Assembly: GCA_000004985.1 (NCBI GenBank)
Contig: GG738890.1
Strand: one strand, 5' to 3'
DNA length: 64,000 nucleotides
Source: Naegleria gruberi
Lineage: Eukaryota
Shown here: positions 54,226 through 61,417 of the stretch, in pieces
Numbering within the stretch: the stretch's first letter is position 1
How the letters are laid out: each line of letters opens with the position of its first letter
Notes under the pieces: generated by a model
The model's database searches: none
The model's input: the letters and a program-made list of their open reading frames with translations, nothing else
What the model was told of the DNA's origin: nothing
Position numbers and translations under genes: made by a program

Positions 54226-56535
54226 TTATTTACAACATTTGGATCGAACAAGCTTTACAATACTATAGATGGATATGGCAAGCAAATACAATGACAATCC
54301 AATGTATAATGGTGCCAAAACGAGAGAATATCTCAGTGTAATCAAGGTATCCAAACGAAGGGAGAGAAGAATTAGGAAGGTTGTAAATGGGGAAAGCAAC
54401 AAGAATACAATTGGAATGGGAGTAAGAACAGCCAAAACGGTCGTCTTTTTGGCATGAAAACCATTGTAAAATATTTTTGCTGCATAATAGGGAAGGATTG
54501 AAATATTGAAATGTATCAATAATAAACAGACATAAGCTGGTGTCAATACTTCAGACCATTTCACATGTTCTGTAAATGACATTTCATCCAGCTTTAAACT
54601 CGCTAGCACTAGTGACGTGCCTGAAGAAAGGTAAATTAAATTCACATTCATTACTAAAAGCATGATTGTTAAAAGTTGTGATATTGTTCTCTTAAAGGGT
54701 GATTTGAGTGTCCACAATCTAACACCTCTATAGGTGAAATCAACACAAGCAAAGAGTTGGAAAATATATACAGGAATTAGGAGGTATCTCCAAACAAGTT
54801 GATCTTTAAAGATCAAAAATCTTAATCCAATAACCAAAACCAAGACAGAGAACCATATTAATTGGGATGGAGCTGCCATTTTGAGTTGATAATTTGGATC
54901 ATCAATATTCTCCTGCATATCAGAGGAGAAGAAGAGTCTTCTCAAAATGACAAATAGTACGCTTGTCTCAGCATTAGAATCCTCTTCATTAGGATGAAGA
55001 AGACTTGTTGATTCGTCAGTAGATTTCTTCTTGTGAAAACGATTGTAACAAGTGAGGAAAAAGGAGGAAAGGTAAGGTACCCAACCCATCATTAAATAGA
55101 GTGAGCCAATGAAAAGAAAAAATATTGGAAGCCATAACAATGAGAATCCAGCAGGGCTTACTGTTAGCAGTGTCTCGGCACTTTCCTTTTCCAAGGTATT
55201 GTCATAGTAGAGTCCTGAGAAGATTAAACTCAATGTAATAAATAGAAGGGTGGTTAGGGAGAGTATACATAATTGAATGTACATGCAAGGTTGACATCGT
55301 TTGCTAAAAAAGATACCAATCTTGTCCTCGGCTCGTTTTCCTCGTTCCTTTTTCTTCACTGTTTTCGAGTGGTGCTTGTAAAGTATATATTGATGTTTGA
55401 GTGGTATTCTCTTGAGATGAGAACTGGATTTCAACTCTTGCCCAGCAACTTGATAAAATGATTTGCTAGAAGAGAAGGAAGAATCCCTACTCCTAATTTT
55501 GGTAACATTATCATTAATTGATCCAATTTCTGGTATATCGTCAATATTTTCCACTGGATTAATTTCACTCATGGTATTAAGTGGTGTATAAACTGTGTTT
55601 AAATCTGTAAAATTATAATTATAATAATTATCGTGAAAATCCAATTGATAGAGTACTGTTTGCATACTAATACGTTCTCGTTGTGGGAGTCTTAGTAGTA
55701 AAGATTTCCAAAACTTGTCCTCGATTGTTAAATAGTAATAGTACTTGCTAGTGAGTCCCATATTTAAATTGTCTTCCAATGGAAGGAAGGATATGATAAT
55801 TTCCACTTCATCCTTACTCAAATTATTAAAATTCATGAAAATTTCACTTGGTTCTATAAAAATATCAGCGCTCTCATGCTTTGAGCTAATATTTGATAAA
55901 ATCCCCTGAACATCTTCAGAAGTACTAGAGAAGAAGTGAGTACCAGACACTGATCTCTCCCCTTCGGCATGTATCTGTTTGATGGCATTAATTACTTGAA
56001 AATTAAATCGTTCATCTATCGACTCATTCACTCTGAGAAATTTCGGAGATGTTGGAGGTCCAGCTGTTATCGTTGTTGGCTGCTCAAACAAACTGTTGCC
56101 ATTCAATAATGTACTCGAAGTGGCATGTATTAAATTATCTGTATGTTTGAAATATCCAGAATGAAGCGATGAAGCTAAAGTACTACTTCTATTCACTTTG
56201 TTTTTCTTTTTTCGTTTGTCCTCTATTTGCCAAGTTGGTAAGGATGATGATACAATATTATTGGTGGTATTAGAATTGGTTATTGTTGTTGTTATTGTTG
56301 TTGATGATGATGAAGGAGAATCGGAATGAAGAGGTGATAAAAAGAGGTTTTTAGAATCCTCACTCTCCTCTTCAACATCTGATGATGAATTTTCAAACTC
56401 TTCTATTATTGGTTTTCCAACTTCACTTTCCAATATATTTAATTCATCGTGATGATAGGAACTGGTAGGAGCAGCAGCAACTTGTCTATTACTACCACCA
56501 CTACCACTACCAGAACGTTTCTTATGATTATTCAT
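54226..56535 (-). CDS. Ser-rich protein with an internal F-box-like motif followed by a polytopic (about 8 TM) C-terminal domain
   Basis: The F-box-like motif is LSKDEVEIIISFLPLEDNLNMGLTSKYYYYLTIEDKFWKSL. The C-terminal 330 aa contain about eight 18-23-aa hydrophobic segments. ATG at 56535. Confidence 0.5.
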   Translation of the reverse strand: MNNHKKRSGSGSGGSNRQVAAAPTSSYHHDELNILESEVGKPIIEEFENSSSDVEEESEDSKNLFLSPLHSDSPSSSSTTITTTITNSNTTNNIVSSSLPTWQIEDKRKKKNKVNRSSTLASSLHSGYFKHTDNLIHATSSTLLNGNSLFEQPTTITAGPPTSPKFLRVNESIDERFNFQVINAIKQIHAEGERSVSGTHFFSSTSEDVQGILSNISSKHESADIFIEPSEIFMNFNNLSKDEVEIIISFLPLEDNLNMGLTSKYYYYLTIEDKFWKSLLLRLPQRERISMQTVLYQLDFHDNYYNYNFTDLNTVYTPLNTMSEINPVENIDDIPEIGSINDNVTKIRSRDSSFSSSKSFYQVAGQELKSSSHLKRIPLKHQYILYKHHSKTVKKKERGKRAEDKIGIFFSKRCQPCMYIQLCILSLTTLLFITLSLIFSGLYYDNTLEKESAETLLTVSPAGFSLLWLPIFFLFIGSLYLMMGWVPYLSSFFLTCYNRFHKKKSTDESTSLLHPNEEDSNAETSVLFVILRRLFFSSDMQENIDDPNYQLKMAAPSQLIWFSVLVLVIGLRFLIFKDQLVWRYLLIPVYIFQLFACVDFTYRGVRLWTLKSPFKRTISQLLTIMLLVMNVNLIYLSSGTSLVLASLKLDEMSFTEHVKWSEVLTPAYVCLLLIHFNISILPYYAAKIFYNGFHAKKTTVLAVLTPIPIVFLLLSPFTTFLILLSLRLDTLITLRYSLVLAPLYIGLSLYLLAISIYSIVKLVRSKCCK

Positions 56536-57217
56536 AATTACGTGATGTTCTGTAGAATATATTACTACTCCTTTTATATTGATGATGATTCCGGATATAT
56601 TAGATGATGGTGATGATATTATTATTCAAGACAATCTTTAAATTATTGTTAATTATTATTACTATTATCCAAAAATCATTAAAAAAACAATGAAATCTTG
56701 TTCTGAACAATAAATAGTATATTAGAACGGCAAGACTTGCCACCAAGAAGGAACACAGCAATAAAAAAAACAAAATCACACTGTGTTCTTGTTGTTGTTG
56801 TGTTTTTGAAACAAAATTAAAAGACCGTTATTTTTTTTCTTAATAAAAAATAGCTTGGAAAGTGAAGTCTTTTGCAAGGGTGATGGTTGAGAAGAGTTTT
56901 TCGTATCCGCTTTGATGCAGATGGATTTGTTTTGATCTGATTGGGAATGGCTTTGGAGATTTAAAGATTTTGATATATTTCTAATTTATCTTTTTCGGGA
57001 TCATCAAGAAGATTTTTTGTTTATTATTTCAAAGGCTTCTTCTTATCTAATAATTAATTAATTGTGTGGATAGAATTGTTACTCATCATGATTCAATTAA
57101 TTAAAGGAAAGATAGTTTTAAAACTTTCCGAACGCAATATCCTCTAAAAAGGAAAAACAGAAAATTGGAAATATTCCAAACAAATAATTAGAAAAAGTTT
57201 CTTCAACAAAAAGAAAT

Positions 57218-59342
57218 ATGAAGAAGAGAGAAGGAGCAACCGAGAATTGTCAAATACAGCTTCAGCACAATCCAAAAACTGCTCAAGATTTATTCAAGCA
57301 TTTACAACCCCAAACTATTCATTTACCTCCTTTGGAGAATGGTGAAATACTAATCAAGGTATTATATATTGCCTTGGATCCAAGTTTGAAACCATTACTA
57401 GCTGGAGAGAAGATACCATCTTCTAGTGATGGTACTCAAAAAAAAGATTTGGTTTATGATCATCCTCCAAGTAAAACAACCATAGATGAAAAGGGAAGTA
57501 AATTGATTATACCACCACCAAGTATTGATATTACTACATGTCAAGCAACTGGAAATACTCAATTTGCAAATTATTTCCCTCCACCATTCTCTAAACAACA
57601 AGAATGGATTGAGAGTAATCATCCTTCAATTGGCAGTAATTTGAATACAGATCCTAGACGAATACTCAATTATGGTGTATTGAAGGCGTATGCAGTTGGT
57701 GAAGTTATCGAATCTAAAAATCATTTATTCACTAAGGGAAGGTATGTATTTATTTGAGAACATTAGGATGCTCATAATATGAAATAGAAATGTTTACGGC
57801 AATTTGGGAGTTCAACAATATTTACTTTCGAGTGGAGGAAAAGATTTGGATGATAATATGGTCCGTGATATTACAATGGATTCTCCATTATCTGCATTCC
57901 TCACTCTTTCAAAAGCAGGTTTATGTGCATATTTTGGAATCACAGAGCTTAGCAATGTTGCAGAGGGTGAGTGTGTATTTGTAACAGGAGGTACTGGTTG
58001 TGTTGGATCATTTGTTCCACAGGTCGTGAGAGCCTCTCTTTCTGATAAGAAGATTAAAGAGGGGATTAAGAATGACGAAACTCATCACGAGCATGTTCAC
58101 AAAAGCTCACCATCATCCGTTGGTAATCATACGCACAATAATGGCGAAAAGACATCATTATGCAGTTCTAGTCATTGTTTAATTCCACACCGATCTTGTA
58201 ATAAGGCCAAATCCCCAACTCTATCATGGCTCTTCTCTTCATTAATTGAAGAAGAGAATGAGGAAGAATATGACCTTTCACACTCTAACAATGAGGATGA
58301 AGAGCACTTTCCCAAATCTTCTCATGAGGTCATTTCGAGAGAGGATGAGCCATCTGAAGCAACCCACTTTATACACGATCCAATCGTTACCCCACATGGT
58401 CATCTTTACCATTCCCCAGAGGAGATGAAACATGGTCATCATCTTCACTTGCCTCACCATACTACTCATCACCATCCTTACTTACACAATGTAGAAAGAT
58501 TGAATCTGATGAATTCATCAGCATCTACTCATATTCCTCCACAGATTAAGATTTTTGGATTTTGTTCCTCTGATTCAAAAAAATCACTTATGACTAATAA
58601 GCTCAAATATGATAATGCCATCAATTATTCAAATTACATGAAAAAGAAGAATACTTCAGAGAGTGGAGCATCCACTACAGATGATCCACTAAACAGCCCA
58701 TGCGCCTCTTGCCTTATTCCAGCATGGTCATCGGTGTCTCCATTTACACACATGTATGGTGCCAGTACGGGTAGTTCTTGCAGTGTATTGCAAGATCAAC
58801 CAGCAGATACTTGTCTACTCAAAACTGGTCAAAGATATGATTATTCCAAAATTGATAGAGCTGCATTGAGTAAGGCTATTGGAGAAATGTGCCCAGATGG
58901 AATTGATGTGGTCTTTGACACTGTGGGAGGTGTCTTGCTTGATTTATGTTTAGAACATTTGAAAACAAATGCAAGAATAGTTATTTGTGGAGCCATTGCA
59001 AATTCCAATGGAATTCAGTCATTTTCATCATCGGTAGGTAAGAATGAGAATGAAGCATTTGAAGGCCCTCACAATTATGTAAACCTTATCCTGAAATGTG
59101 CCAGAATGGAAGGATTTATGGTTGAAAAGTTCCAGTCCAAATTCAAGCAAGCTTCCCATACTCTTGTGAGATGGATTCAAGAGAAGAAGATTGATAGCTT
59201 GGAAGAAAATGTTATTGAATGCGATCTCAAAGATCGAACACAAGTTATCAATGCAATTGAGAAATTATTCAGTGGTGAATATTATGGAAAGTTAATTGTT
59301 AGAGTAAAGCAGAGTGGTACACTTTCCAGTCCTCAACATTAG
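57218..59342 (+). CDS. Medium-chain dehydrogenase/reductase of the prostaglandin reductase / LTB4 12-hydroxydehydrogenase type, with two large insertions. The CDS is join(57218..57741, 57788..59342), about 692 aa.
   Basis: N-terminal GroES-like motifs are ENGEILIKVLYIALDP...YGVLKAYAVGEVIES. The cofactor motif is GECVFVTGGTGCVGS. C-terminal conserved blocks are PDGIDVVFDTVGG...ARIVICGAI...GKLIVRV. The 46-nt intron (GTATGT...AATAG, phase 2) joins ...FTKG-R-NVYGNLGVQQY.... An inserted segment of about 290 aa, rich in His and Ser (HGHLYHSPEEMKHGHHLHLPHHTTHHHPYLH), follows the GxGxxG motif. Confidence 0.7.
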
Positions 59343-59374
59343 TTAACATTACAAATATACTACATTATATATAT

Positions 59375-61219
59375 TTATTCAGTTTTGATTTTGGTTGATC
59401 TTACTCTGCAACAACAGAAGCAACAACACAAGCAAGTCAAGAAACGTTTAACAATCAGTGCGAAAATTCCAATTTGTAGAGCAGTTGTAATGAATATGAA
59501 ACTAGACCATTCCAATGGAAGCTTCATTCCATCATCACCTTCATCAAATCCCCTATGTCCATTAAAATACTTGAATGTAAAATAGAGCGCATTGTGAATT
59601 CTCTCACCTGAATTTGATGAGTAATACTTGAATAATGAGCTTGCCCATTGAATTCTTTCAGCCTTTTCTTGACTAATCAAGGTGCTTTCTATCAAGTTAC
59701 CAAATGTTTGAGGAGTGATCCATTTCGAATAGATCCAATCACCAAAATCTTTATCCTGCAAACGATTACACACTAAAAATTGATCAGCAGTTATTGGAAT
59801 ACCAACCAAGAGCTTTCCATAAAAGATTCCCTCACTCACACTATTAAAACCACAATGAGTGACAAATAATCGAGTTGCCCTATGATTTAGTATAAATTGT
59901 TGGGGAAGAAAGTCACTCGAAAGTTTCATTCTCTTTATCCAAGTATTCGAATCTTGCACAGATGAAGCATAATCCAATTGATTACTATTCATTTCCTTTT
60001 CAAGAACTGCTTGTTGTTCCTTTTCAACTCTCATCAAGACATTCAAATCCTTATTCGATTTCAACACCTTCGAAAGACCTCTAATAATGTTTCGATTAGT
60101 TTCAACACTCAATTTGAATTGACTTCCTGTACTAATAAAAATCAATCTTTCATTATTATTACCAAGCAAATCTAACCAATCTTGAAGGGATTTAAATTCT
60201 AGTTGACCTGAAACTGAATCAATGAGAGGAAAACCAATATCAAAATATTTAGGATAAGCTCTCATTCTACTAGATTCCAATACTCCAGGAGCTGACATTA
60301 ACAAAACTGGATATTGACTCGAAATGGAATTGTAATTTCTATACGAAAAGGTTTTTGTAATGAACTTTGAATTGTAATGTGGTCGAATTTTGAACAATGC
60401 AAAGCAATGAACCAAAATTCTCAGAGTTGGAAAGAAAATTTGTGCAGTAAAAACATTCACTAGAATGGAAAGAATCGAATATCTCCAAACTCTCAACTTG
60501 AACCATTGAAAATAATCATGTAAATATTCGAATCTTCCTAAAATGTAATCTGTGAAAGTTCCCCAAAGTAATTCAGAAATAGAATTTGGATGTGTCAATG
60601 GTAAATCCTCAAAATCAATTGCTTCAGCAATACCAGTCACAAGTGTCATTAATCTCACACTATTATTGAACTTGGCATTTAATTGTTGAAACATGTCAAT
60701 GTATGAATAATGGAAATCCAAAGAATCAACAATTATAATATCTGGCTTTTCATTTGGATAATTCTCAAATCTTTCCATGAAAAAATTAAAAGATTCAATT
60801 GAAAATGAAGCCATGACTTCCAAACCTTCGACAATTGACATTTTCATAATATCCTTCTTCCATTCTCCATATTTATAAAAATATAGAGATTTACTTTGAT
60901 TTTTAGGTAAACCTTTCGATTGATCAATGATTTGATAATTTTGCAAAGGAAAATCTTGTGGAATCCATTCTGAGGGCTTGGACACGTTTTCGATCCACGC
61001 CAACGACACTGAAATTTCATAGAGATTATTTCCATTCTCGTCTTTTGGATTGAATTGCATTAAATTCTTAATGACGGTCATGAAGGGATTGTAATGTCCT
61101 TTGGATGGTGCTGGACAGAACAAGATCTTGATGGCTTGAACTTTCGAATAAAAGCAAACGAAAGTGAGAATGAAAAGAAGGATGAGGATTGGTTTGTTTC
61201 TAAAGACATGTGTCTTCAT
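59375..61219 (-). CDS. UDP-glucuronosyl/UDP-glycosyltransferase of the ER-membrane animal-like UGT type, with signal peptide and C-terminal TM
   Basis: The UGT signature is FILNHRATRLFVTHCGFNSVSEGIFYGKLLVGIPITADQFLVCNRLQD. The signal peptide is MKTHVFRNKPILILLFILTFVCFYSKVQA. The C-terminal anchor is IFITTALQIGIFALIV. The track start at 61255 is a TTG; the ATG is at 61219. Confidence 0.75.
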   Translation of the reverse strand: MKTHVFRNKPILILLFILTFVCFYSKVQAIKILFCPAPSKGHYNPFMTVIKNLMQFNPKDENGNNLYEISVSLAWIENVSKPSEWIPQDFPLQNYQIIDQSKGLPKNQSKSLYFYKYGEWKKDIMKMSIVEGLEVMASFSIESFNFFMERFENYPNEKPDIIIVDSLDFHYSYIDMFQQLNAKFNNSVRLMTLVTGIAEAIDFEDLPLTHPNSISELLWGTFTDYILGRFEYLHDYFQWFKLRVWRYSILSILVNVFTAQIFFPTLRILVHCFALFKIRPHYNSKFITKTFSYRNYNSISSQYPVLLMSAPGVLESSRMRAYPKYFDIGFPLIDSVSGQLEFKSLQDWLDLLGNNNERLIFISTGSQFKLSVETNRNIIRGLSKVLKSNKDLNVLMRVEKEQQAVLEKEMNSNQLDYASSVQDSNTWIKRMKLSSDFLPQQFILNHRATRLFVTHCGFNSVSEGIFYGKLLVGIPITADQFLVCNRLQDKDFGDWIYSKWITPQTFGNLIESTLISQEKAERIQWASSLFKYYSSNSGERIHNALYFTFKYFNGHRGFDEGDDGMKLPLEWSSFIFITTALQIGIFALIVKRFLTCLCCCFCCCRVRSTKIKTE

Positions 61220-61417
61220 CTTGTTTTTTTTTGTGTTTGATTTGAACAAAGTCAATATTAGGATTCTTTTGAATTACAGATTATGAAATTTTTGATTGGG
61301 TTGATGATATTTAAATGTGCGTTGCATAATAGGACTAATTAGTGCTACTTGATTAGCGCGCTTCGTTAGATATTGATATTAAAAAACCTAACATAATGAA
61401 GTCCAATGAAGAAATGT

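Follow-up and report, generated by a model that had tools for sequence, protein, structure and literature searches.

Coding loop insertions and a species-specific histidine cluster in a divergent medium-chain reductase-type protein of Naegleria gruberi

Introduction

How can a dinucleotide-binding enzyme of about 380 residues grow to 692 residues, and do the additional segments serve a purpose? This question is raised by a locus of Naegleria gruberi, located in a 64,000-nucleotide stretch (here called the window) of contig GG738890.1 (assembly GCA_000004985.1). A preliminary description had proposed a PTGR-type reductase carrying a single 290-aa His/Ser-rich insertion, possibly a metal-regulated or metal-buffering enzyme. 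We consider it likely that the locus encodes a divergent, zinc-independent reductase of the ADH_N_2 type, specific to Heterolobosea. Its loop expansions would be translated and disordered, and their His-rich composition would reflect drift. Though genuine, the finding is a fairly ordinary one and opens no long-standing question. Its chief value is a clean-up: the public gene model is correct, the insertion is genuinely coding, and the metal hypothesis lacks comparative support.

Gene model and family assignment

The gene is already public. Its coding sequence (57218-59342) consists of two exons, and the spliced translation is identical, residue for residue, to the 692-aa database entry XP_002673483.1 (EFC40739.1, D2VR37), annotated 'oxidoreductase'. 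This model is correct; both the start (57218) and the stop (59342) are exact. Exon 1 is defined by its open reading frame, this identity of the spliced translation and a Pfam ADH_N_2 match. The intron position, between TKGR and NVYG, is shared by N. fowleri, where the intron measures 193 nt, and by N. lovaniensis (117 nt); Willaertia magna lacks the intron. By exact look-up, no transcript-derived contigs are on record for the 692-aa protein, and a literature search by accession returned nothing for it. Exact look-up also gave no match for the upstream F-box-like and the downstream UDPGT-like ORF, whose public models presumably differ. Coordinates of all features are collected in Table 1.

Table 1. 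Features of the reductase-type locus, numbered from the first nucleotide of the window
Feature	Position	Strand	Remarks
Exon 1	57218..57741	+	aa 1-174 plus 2 nt; encodes the ADH_N_2 (N-terminal catalytic) domain with ins1
ins1 (aa 65-146), catalytic-domain loop expansion	57410..57655	+	aa 66-123 with pLDDT <50
NYFPPPF motif in ins1 (aa 118-124)	57569-57589	+	aligns with bacterial 'SYIPPV'
Intron	57742..57787	+	46 nt, spliceosomal, GTATGT...AATAG (GT..AG); splits TKGR/NVYG
Exon 2	57788..59342	+	remaining catalytic domain, Rossmann domain with ins2 and ins3, C-terminal blocks; stop TAG at 59340-59342
Gly-rich dinucleotide-binding loop GGTGCVGS (aa 242-249)	57987..58010	+	G245 and G248 invariant in 67 sequences
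ins2 (aa 260-426, 167 aa), alphaA-betaB loop	58041..58541	+	16% His, 14% Ser, 12% Glu
Island RSCNKAKSPTLSW in ins2 (aa 310-322)	58191..58229	+	from three-species alignment
His cluster HGHLYHSPEEMKHGHHLHLPHHTTHHHPYLH (aa 378-408)	58395..58487	+	13 His in 31 residues; N. gruberi-specific
betaB-alphaB-betaC segment QIKIFGFCSSDSKKSLMTNKLKYDNAINYSNYMKK (aa 427-461)	58542..58646	+	35 conserved residues between ins2 and ins3
ins3 (aa 462-524, 63 aa), betaC-alphaC loop	58647..58835	+	Ser/Thr/Cys-rich; aa 469-522 with pLDDT <50
Active-site motif CGAIANSN, then 13-aa loop IQSFSSSVGKNEN (aa 584-596)	58986..59051	+	

The proposed fit of the N-terminal part, the NADP motif and the C-terminal blocks to PTGR/LTB4DH-type medium-chain reductases is borne out by Pfam, PDB matches and the AlphaFold core. 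ADH_N_2 (PF16884) matches in two stretches, one on either side of ins1, with 45.4 bits (gathering cut-off 31; E 8.5e-12). The Rossmann domain is recognized by PF00107 (ADH_zinc_N; 32.7 bits against 31.8) and PF13602 (31.7 against 27). Sequence matches in the PDB fall in three collinear stretches, and the closest solved relatives are PA1648 (4b7c) and LTB4 12-HD/PTGR1 (1v3t, 2y05). In the AlphaFold model the two-domain core is complete (pLDDT >90), and Foldseek comparisons with solved members give target-normalised TM-scores of 0.80-0.93 with E-values down to 7e-25. The flanking conserved blocks thus belong to one gene: the core superposes on whole PA1648/LTB4DH chains (target-normalised TM-score 0.83-0.93), and the blocks are contiguous in Willaertia magna, which has no ins2.

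The PTGR label holds for subfamily homology but is too specific as a name. Two NCBIfam equivalog models were scored, with the insertions removed for the core. The PTGR1/LTB4 12-hydroxydehydrogenase model B4_12hDH (TIGR02825) reached only 135 bits for the core and 108 for the whole protein, far below its cut-off of 579.85; the curcumin reductase CurA model (NF058644) reached 150 bits for the insertion-free core, against 440. In addition, the catalytic Tyr is replaced by Ser581 (see 'Active site'). A search of 1.84 billion representative proteins gives no more than five hits at E<=1e-30, all of them in this clade; all others among the best 150 relatives are 229-473 aa long.

Architecture of the insertions

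The supposed single insertion of 290 aa consists of two, ins2 and ins3, which are separated by a conserved betaB-alphaB-betaC segment (QIKIFGFCSSDSKKSLMTNKLKYDNAINYSNYMKK). In this segment, modelled as strands and helix with a pLDDT of about 95, four columns are invariant in 67 of 67 aligned sequences (G432, K439, D450 and Y455). By the alignment, K439 and Y455 would correspond to Lys178 and Tyr193, the NADP 2'-phosphate contacts of PTGR1. Nor does ins2 start directly after the Gly-rich loop, as had been stated; it begins only after helix alphaA (aa 251 onward). Judging from the topology of the Rossmann fold, ins2 would lie at the cofactor-distal end of this helix, which would explain why the fold tolerates it. 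The reported insertion of about 80 aa in the catalytic domain exists, but it represents two loop expansions rather than one, because the conserved Y-x-P-P motif (NYFPPPF) lies inside ins1. We speak of lineage-specific expansions of four surface loops, which would add about 310 translated residues to an otherwise complete two-domain fold and NADP(H) site.

The insertions are probably intrinsically disordered. In ins2, AlphaFold assigns pLDDT <50 to aa 285-404; aa 260-278 extend helix alphaA, and a low-confidence helix is placed at 405-417. Disorder is a prediction here, since low pLDDT partly reflects an alignment that is only 3-5 sequences deep in these regions. A Pfam search at E<=10 detected no domain in ins1, ins2 or ins3; the only hit, to DUF6290, stayed below threshold (14.9 bits; cut-off 27) and was dismissed. 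An origin from DNA repeats or mobile elements was also rejected, as only chance matches of 13-23 nt occur within the window. Tandem Repeats Finder reports a single 12-nt purine-rich repeat, beneath the EEENEEE run. SPTLSWLFSSLIEEENEEEYDLSHSNNEDEEHFPK exemplifies the tryptic peptides of ins2/ins3.

Coding status

The preliminary description had judged the inserted DNA to be coding-like in composition and not plausibly intronic, and several lines of evidence agree. The reading frame of ins2 contains no stop codon while each of the other five frames contains 7-19, and none of 20,000 shuffled versions of ins2 was stop-free. Codon position 1 has a higher GC content than positions 2 and 3, which is also true of the core. 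In a 98.6%-identical strain, the CDS differs by 8 substitutions and one 3-nt indel, which lies inside ins2; in the 463-nt 5' flank, the same strain has 13 substitutions together with four indels (2, 7, 4 and 1 nt). Furthermore, N. fowleri and N. lovaniensis have ORF-continuous insertions of 165 aa at the ins2 site, and a short island within them evolves with a low omega (see the following section).

Alternatively, part or all of the insertion could be an unrecognised intron whose removal would restore an enzyme of ordinary size, some 380 aa. Naegleria introns can be short, as is the one in this gene (46 nt), and the RefSeq model of N. fowleri places a 91-nt intron within ins2. This annotated intron 2 was dropped as support for splicing, because it is an artefact that spans a frameshift of 1 nt in one of the assemblies. 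In three other N. fowleri sources the reading frame continues uninterrupted, and the 'intronic' codons show 6 synonymous differences from N. lovaniensis and 1 non-synonymous one. The comparison has thereby brought to light that the RefSeq model of the N. fowleri orthologue is misannotated. In N. gruberi itself, a scan of ins2 for GTAAGT/GTATGT-type donors found none inside. Donor-like sites occur only within conserved codons, apart from a site in the 13-aa loop (59038), for which the sole in-frame GT..AG option is 18 nt and was judged too short for an intron. A candidate bounded by CAG/GTCGTGAG and CCACAG (58023..58554) was likewise rejected, because its 532 nt are not a multiple of 3 and its removal would delete the conserved 'QVVRA' helix. 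Taken with the single open frame, the in-frame strain indel, the island omega and the core-like GC profile, these results make splicing of the insertion highly improbable.

Probable growth of ins2 and its conserved island

We return to translated loop expansions as the favoured reading. Shared presence of the insertion among relatives extends to N. fowleri and N. lovaniensis, at the same site, but not to Willaertia. The ins2 loop measures 3 aa in Willaertia (that is, the insertion is absent), 41 aa in the relative P0007 and 165-167 aa in Naegleria; ins3 is present in Willaertia and P0007 as well. This series suggests that ins2 grew stepwise in the lineage, with a length and composition that would drift fast. 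Such growth of a loop in a Rossmann fold, from 3 to 41 to about 165 aa across Heterolobosea, is of modest specialist interest.

Within ins2, RSCNKAKSPTLSW is the only segment that aligns as conserved across the three Naegleria species. Between N. fowleri and N. lovaniensis, the corresponding 32-codon island has an omega of 0.09, compared with 0.56 for the remaining ins2 and 0.07-0.24 for the core, which is under purifying selection. The value of 0.56 still indicates some constraint, and the alignment outside the island is uncertain (52 gapped columns). By this measure, the R.C.KAKSPTLSW island is constrained as strongly as the enzyme core. Its probable role is that of a short linear motif, used either in docking or as a Ser-Pro phosphorylation site. 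Core-level constraint on a short island inside an insertion is again of modest specialist interest.

One could go further and regard ins2 as a regulatory appendage, in which KAKSPTLSW acts as a docking or phosphorylation switch and the His/Glu tract of N. gruberi as a metal- or pH-responsive element. If so, a Tyr-less enone-reductase fold would have become a sensor or a regulated detoxification enzyme. We hold this to be improbable.

Histidine cluster and the metal hypothesis

The His cluster quoted in the preliminary description is present verbatim (HGHLYHSPEEMKHGHHLHLPHHTTHHHPYLH). Of the 30 long stop-free stretches compared in the window, no other has a cluster as extreme or as dense in His (8 His in the runner-up), and the underlying DNA is not simply a tandem repeat. 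A cluster of 13 His beside acidic runs would very likely bind Ni, Zn or Cu in vitro. For the N. gruberi protein, such binding is plausible on chemical grounds, which leaves some probability for a metal effect confined to this species.

Whether ins2 is a functional divalent-metal-binding module, which would make the reductase metal-regulated or metal-buffering, is a separate matter. That idea was drawn from His content, which is not conserved. Of the 167 residues of N. gruberi ins2, 27 are His; the RefSeq model of N. fowleri has 5 in 135 aa and N. lovaniensis 6 in 165 aa, and Willaertia has no insertion at all. In the orthologues, the cluster aligns with gaps or with Thr/Ser/Pro-rich sequence, and the part of ins2 under selection is the His-free KAKSPTLSW island. 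No Pfam domain accompanies the cluster. In the part of the N. gruberi copper-proteomics supplement (PMC9035749) that was covered, XP_002673483 is also not listed, a weak negative. N. fowleri does carry a separate His run, HHQRFGLHHQHHHHE, but in its N-terminal extension. Because ins2 is His-rich in N. gruberi only, nothing here supports a conserved metal role, and we regard a functional metal module as distinctly unlikely. More probably, the His/Glu-rich composition would be a species-specific product of drift.

Active site

The 'GAISQYN' motif of the family contains a Tyr with at least 90% conservation in the alignment. In N. gruberi, this position is occupied by S581 (59004-59006), in N. fowleri by Q and in N. 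lovaniensis by H. P0007 and Willaertia have no aligned Tyr, although in Willaertia a Tyr is found shifted by one position. The canonical residue is thus lost clade-wide, an observation of modest specialist interest. The 13-aa loop IQSFSSSVGKNEN following the motif occurs only in N. gruberi, and AlphaFold gives aa 580-591 a pLDDT <50. Other near-invariant blocks are altered as well ('DPAMRGW' to 'DPSLKPL', 'FDNVGG' to 'FDTVGG'). The role of Tyr245/Tyr259 is summarised in a passage of bioRxiv 10.1101/2020.07.13.201608, which cites Hori 2004 and Chou 2007.

The most likely activity would be NADPH hydride transfer to an activated C=C bond or a related electrophile. Altered chemistry or an altered substrate may be expected, because Ser581 replaces the Tyr that normally supports the network of the nicotinamide-ribose 2'-OH and the enolate. 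With this residue lost, the protein may not even be a reductase. It could be a pseudo-enzyme or scaffold, in which an NADPH-binding fold, disordered tails and a linear motif serve regulation or sensing instead of catalysis. The Tyr replacement, the altered blocks, the equivalog scores far below their cut-offs and the conserved motif island in ins2 are all compatible with this. Against it, the cofactor-site residues are still invariant, and the core omega of about 0.1 is that expected of a working enzyme. Moreover, in some members of the family, mutation of the corresponding Tyr merely lowers activity. On balance we find a non-catalytic protein unlikely.

Comparison with known systems

A divergent but functional reductase, our preferred reading, is best compared with the bacterial CurA/YncB-like oxidoreductases. 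Pseudomonas aeruginosa PA1648 (4b7c) is the best match in both sequence (E 6e-32) and structure (target-normalised TM-score 0.86-0.93), and across about 95% of the core, insertions removed, identity is 33-38%. Common features are the ADH_N_2 plus Rossmann architecture, the Gly loop, the K/Y 2'-phosphate contacts and the C-terminal 'LFSGE..GK'. In contrast to the Naegleria protein, these enzymes are 327-365 aa long, have none of the four loop insertions and keep the 'GAISQYN' Tyr.

Animal PTGR1/LTB4 12-hydroxydehydrogenase (1v3t, 2y05) belongs to the same subfamily and fold (E 5e-26, target-normalised TM-score 0.83), sharing the N-terminal block 'LPPL.NGE.L...L..S.DP' and the Rossmann motifs. 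It is not an orthologue, given the B4_12hDH score of 135 bits against 580, Ser581 in place of Tyr245 and the additional loop residues of Naegleria. Plant 2-alkenal/double-bond reductases (AtAER 2j3h, NtDBR 4hfj, MdDBR 6ytz and pulegone reductases) have the same fold and cofactor site at lower similarity (E 1e-19 to 1e-22). They lack the insertions and retain the catalytic Tyr.

Lastly, lineage-specific low-complexity or disordered insertions are known from housekeeping enzymes of protists such as Plasmodium and Dictyostelium. The Naegleria insertions are similar in that they occupy surface loops, are compositionally biased, vary in length between close species and are weakly constrained. They differ in that ins2 holds an island of 13-32 aa constrained like the enzyme core.

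Gene model and family membership

We consider it likely that the gene encodes a medium-chain reductase that is divergent but intact and binds NADPH, and that its surface loops have gained translated, disordered and fast-drifting insertions, with a single short island within one of them (ins2) held by selection. It would thereby be a divergent member of a known family, with a protist loop expansion of a familiar kind. What the preliminary description observed is largely correct, except that it merged two insertions into one.

In this AT-rich eukaryotic DNA (window GC 34%), two adjoining ORFs are joined by a short intron (see table). The spliced CDS of 2,079 nt yields 692 aa, identical at every residue to N. 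gruberi XP_002673483.1 / EFC40739.1 / UniProt D2VR37, publicly annotated as 'oxidoreductase'. This gene model, together with its insertions, is thus in the public databases already, and the limits first proposed (57218-59342) are exactly those of the annotated CDS. A literature look-up by protein accession found no paper naming the reductase. The three Naegleria orthologues have this intron at the same place, between TKGR and NVYG, with lengths of 46 (N. gruberi), 193 (N. fowleri) and 117 nt (N. lovaniensis); it is missing from the Willaertia orthologue.

Coordinates of the features in the window
Feature	Residues	Window position	Strand	Remark
ORF a, reductase gene		57218-57757	+	ORF scan
ORF b, reductase gene		57804-59342	+	ORF scan; adjoins ORF a
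Intron, 46 nt		57742-57787	+	GTATGT...AATAG; joins both ORFs
ins1	65-146	57410-57655		split by conserved NYFPPPF motif (bacterial 'SYIPPV')
ins2, 167 aa	260-426	58041-58541		junction of helix αA and strand βB
Island centre in ins2	310-322	58191-58229		R.C.KAKSPTLSW
ins3, 63 aa	462-524	58647-58835		βC/αC junction
Motif-Tyr position	581	59004-59006		Ser
Extra loop, 13 aa	584-596	59013-59051		IQSFSSSVGKNEN; N. gruberi only; directly after active-site motif
F-box-like ORF		54226-56535	-	769 aa; upstream, divergent
Intergenic region, 680 nt		56536-57217		AT-rich
UDP-glycosyltransferase-like gene		59375-61255	-	convergent
Stop-free stretch, 3,324 codons		34174-44145	-	8 His/31

Pfam places the reductase in ADH_N_2 (45.4 bits, cut-off 31), with ADH_zinc_N / ADH_zinc_N_2 also matched. 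The closest PDB entry is P. aeruginosa PA1648 (4b7c, E 6e-32), followed by guinea-pig and human LTB4 12-HD/PTGR1 (1v3t, 2y05; E 1e-23 to 1e-26); plant double-bond reductases are matched as well. Every PDB match consists of separate collinear stretches with large unmatched gaps between them, 1v3t for instance over roughly aa 30-58, 147-257 and 530-647. A search with the 380-aa core, from which the insertions were taken out, gives 2,286 relatives at E<=1e-10. Outside the clade, the nearest are bacterial proteins labelled 'NADP-dependent oxidoreductase / curcumin reductase CurA', with lengths of 327-365 aa and 33-38% identity. These come from Hymenobacter, Pseudomonas and Saprospiraceae. Since such CurA-like proteins are closer to the core than the animal and plant structures, a bacterial origin of the heterolobosean clade is possible. 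The NCBIfam equivalogs CurA (150 against a cut-off of 440) and B4_12hDH (135 against 580) both score far under threshold. The reductase is a homologue inside the subfamily, neither a PTGR1 nor a CurA orthologue.

Architecture of the extra sequence

The reductase was aligned with four heterolobosean orthologues and 62 bacterial relatives, and an AlphaFold2 model was built from a 67-sequence alignment. When superposed on the entire PA1648, LTB4DH and plant DBR chains, the modelled core (pLDDT >90) reaches TM-scores of 0.80-0.93 (normalised to the target), with E-values as low as 7e-25. Four loop expansions are seen in the alignment, against two in the preliminary description. The extra sequence after the glycine loop is real, but the proposed single insert of ~290 aa joins ins2 and ins3 with a piece of core, because 35 conserved residues (QIKIFGFCSSDSKKSLMTNKLKYDNAINYSNYMKK) sit between them. 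This segment is modelled as βB-αB-βC with pLDDT about 95 and contains four invariant columns (G432, K439, D450 and Y455). Modelled confidence falls below pLDDT 50 at aa 66-123, 285-404, 469-522 and 580-591, and αA is prolonged as a long helix (aa 251-278). No Pfam domain was matched in any insertion.

Probable translation of the insertions

The reading frame of ins2 is free of stops, whereas each of the other five frames contains 7-19, and none of 20,000 shuffles of ins2 was stop-free. No GTAAGT/GTATGT-type donor occurs within it, and an insertion is present at the exact same site in N. fowleri and N. lovaniensis. In the CDS, a near-identical strain (metagenomic contig, 98.6% identical) shows 8 substitutions and a single indel, which is 3 nt long and lies within ins2; its 463-nt 5′ flank has 13 substitutions together with indels of 2, 7, 4 and 1 nt. 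These results support the original reading of coding sequence within one gene. Neither an exact look-up among transcript-derived contigs nor the portion of N. gruberi copper-response proteomics tables that was covered yielded a transcript or peptide; we strongly infer that the N. gruberi insertions are translated. In the 13-aa loop, a donor-like GGTAAG is present, but it gives no in-frame intron whose length would be plausible.

In RefSeq, the N. fowleri model XP_044558074.1 has a 91-nt intron within ins2 (VFQX01000061.1, 7474-7564). As evidence of splicing this is an artefact: the 'intron' spans a 1-nt frameshift by a C-run in one assembly, and its codons are conserved; relative to N. lovaniensis, six changes are synonymous and one is non-synonymous. 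No interruption is seen in CAG4716553.1, an N. fowleri protein of independent origin (799 aa), or in two independent contigs (L006, P0274). The RefSeq model probably lacks 33 aa.

Drift and a constrained island

Among 1.84 billion representative proteins, no more than five match at E<=1e-30, and these all belong to the heterolobosean clade; the other relatives in the best 150 are all 229-473 aa long. The length of ins2 is 3 aa in Willaertia magna, 41 aa in a heterolobosean orthologue fragment (P0007) and 165 aa each in N. fowleri and N. lovaniensis. Between the latter two, omega (NG86) is 0.07-0.24 in core segments, 0.29 in ins3, 1.4 in ins1 and 0.43 in the whole of ins2. Within ins2, a 32-codon island, GLQVDTSQPFPR[KM]CSKAKSPTL[SN]WCV[NH]ALVG, has an omega of 0.09, a value in the range of the enzyme core; outside it, omega is 0.56 over 107 aligned codons, with 52 gapped columns. 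N. gruberi retains the island centre. The island could serve as a linear motif or be phosphorylated at its Ser-Pro.

In the N. fowleri and N. lovaniensis orthologues, the N terminus is also extended by ~175 aa (residues 1-175) of low complexity, rich in Gln, Pro and Ser; this extension is absent from N. gruberi and Willaertia. In N. fowleri it contains a His run, HHQRFGLHHQHHHHE.

The histidine-rich tract

The His cluster quoted in the preliminary description is real: aa 378-408, within ins2, hold 13 His in 31 residues, the most extreme such cluster in the window, and the underlying DNA is no simple repeat. The second-densest spot lies in a long minus-strand stop-free stretch. N. gruberi has 27 His in ins2, N. 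lovaniensis has 6, and the 135-aa ins2 of the RefSeq N. fowleri model has 5; opposite the cluster, the orthologues show gaps or a sequence rich in Ser, Thr and Pro. His richness is specific to N. gruberi, so the suggested metal-regulated reductase finds no comparative support. For the protein of this one species, metal binding would be chemically plausible.

Active site

The alignment shows an intact Gly loop, and we infer that a Lys/Tyr pair, likewise intact, contacts the NADP 2′-phosphate. The Tyr of the near-invariant family motif 'GAISQYN' aligns with that of 'ICGAISVYN' in 1v3t, which by our own count would be PTGR1 Tyr245, once the four residues added at the N terminus of the crystallised chain are allowed for. 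The literature assigns this residue to the 2′-OH/enolate-stabilising network (bioRxiv 10.1101/2020.07.13.201608, citing Hori 2004, Chou 2007). At this position N. gruberi has Ser581, N. fowleri Gln and N. lovaniensis His; the P0007 residue is not Tyr either, and in Willaertia the Tyr is displaced by one position. Further near-invariant motifs are altered in the clade ('DPAMRGW' to 'DPSLKPL', 'FDNVGG' to 'FDTVGG'). The Tyr replacement, which extends over all the heterolobosean orthologues, suggests altered chemistry or loss of catalysis, and a non-catalytic role of a reductase-fold protein is conceivable. With a core omega of about 0.1, the reductase is clearly a functional protein, and its chemistry or substrate is probably unlike that of PTGR1/CurA.

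Neighbouring genes

The stop codons of the reductase and the convergent UDP-glycosyltransferase-like gene are 32 nt apart (59343-59374), and their 3′ UTRs presumably overlap. Upstream, the intergenic region is common to the reductase gene and a divergent ORF with a weak F-box-like match and, by eye, many hydrophobic segments in its translation. The protein collection contains no sequence identical to it, so this ORF has a different public model. In N. lovaniensis, a 972-aa TnpB/Fanzor-like gene with OrfB_IS605 / Cas12f-like TNB domain matches (PYSW02000054.1, 12714-14409) lies about 4 kb downstream of the reductase orthologue.
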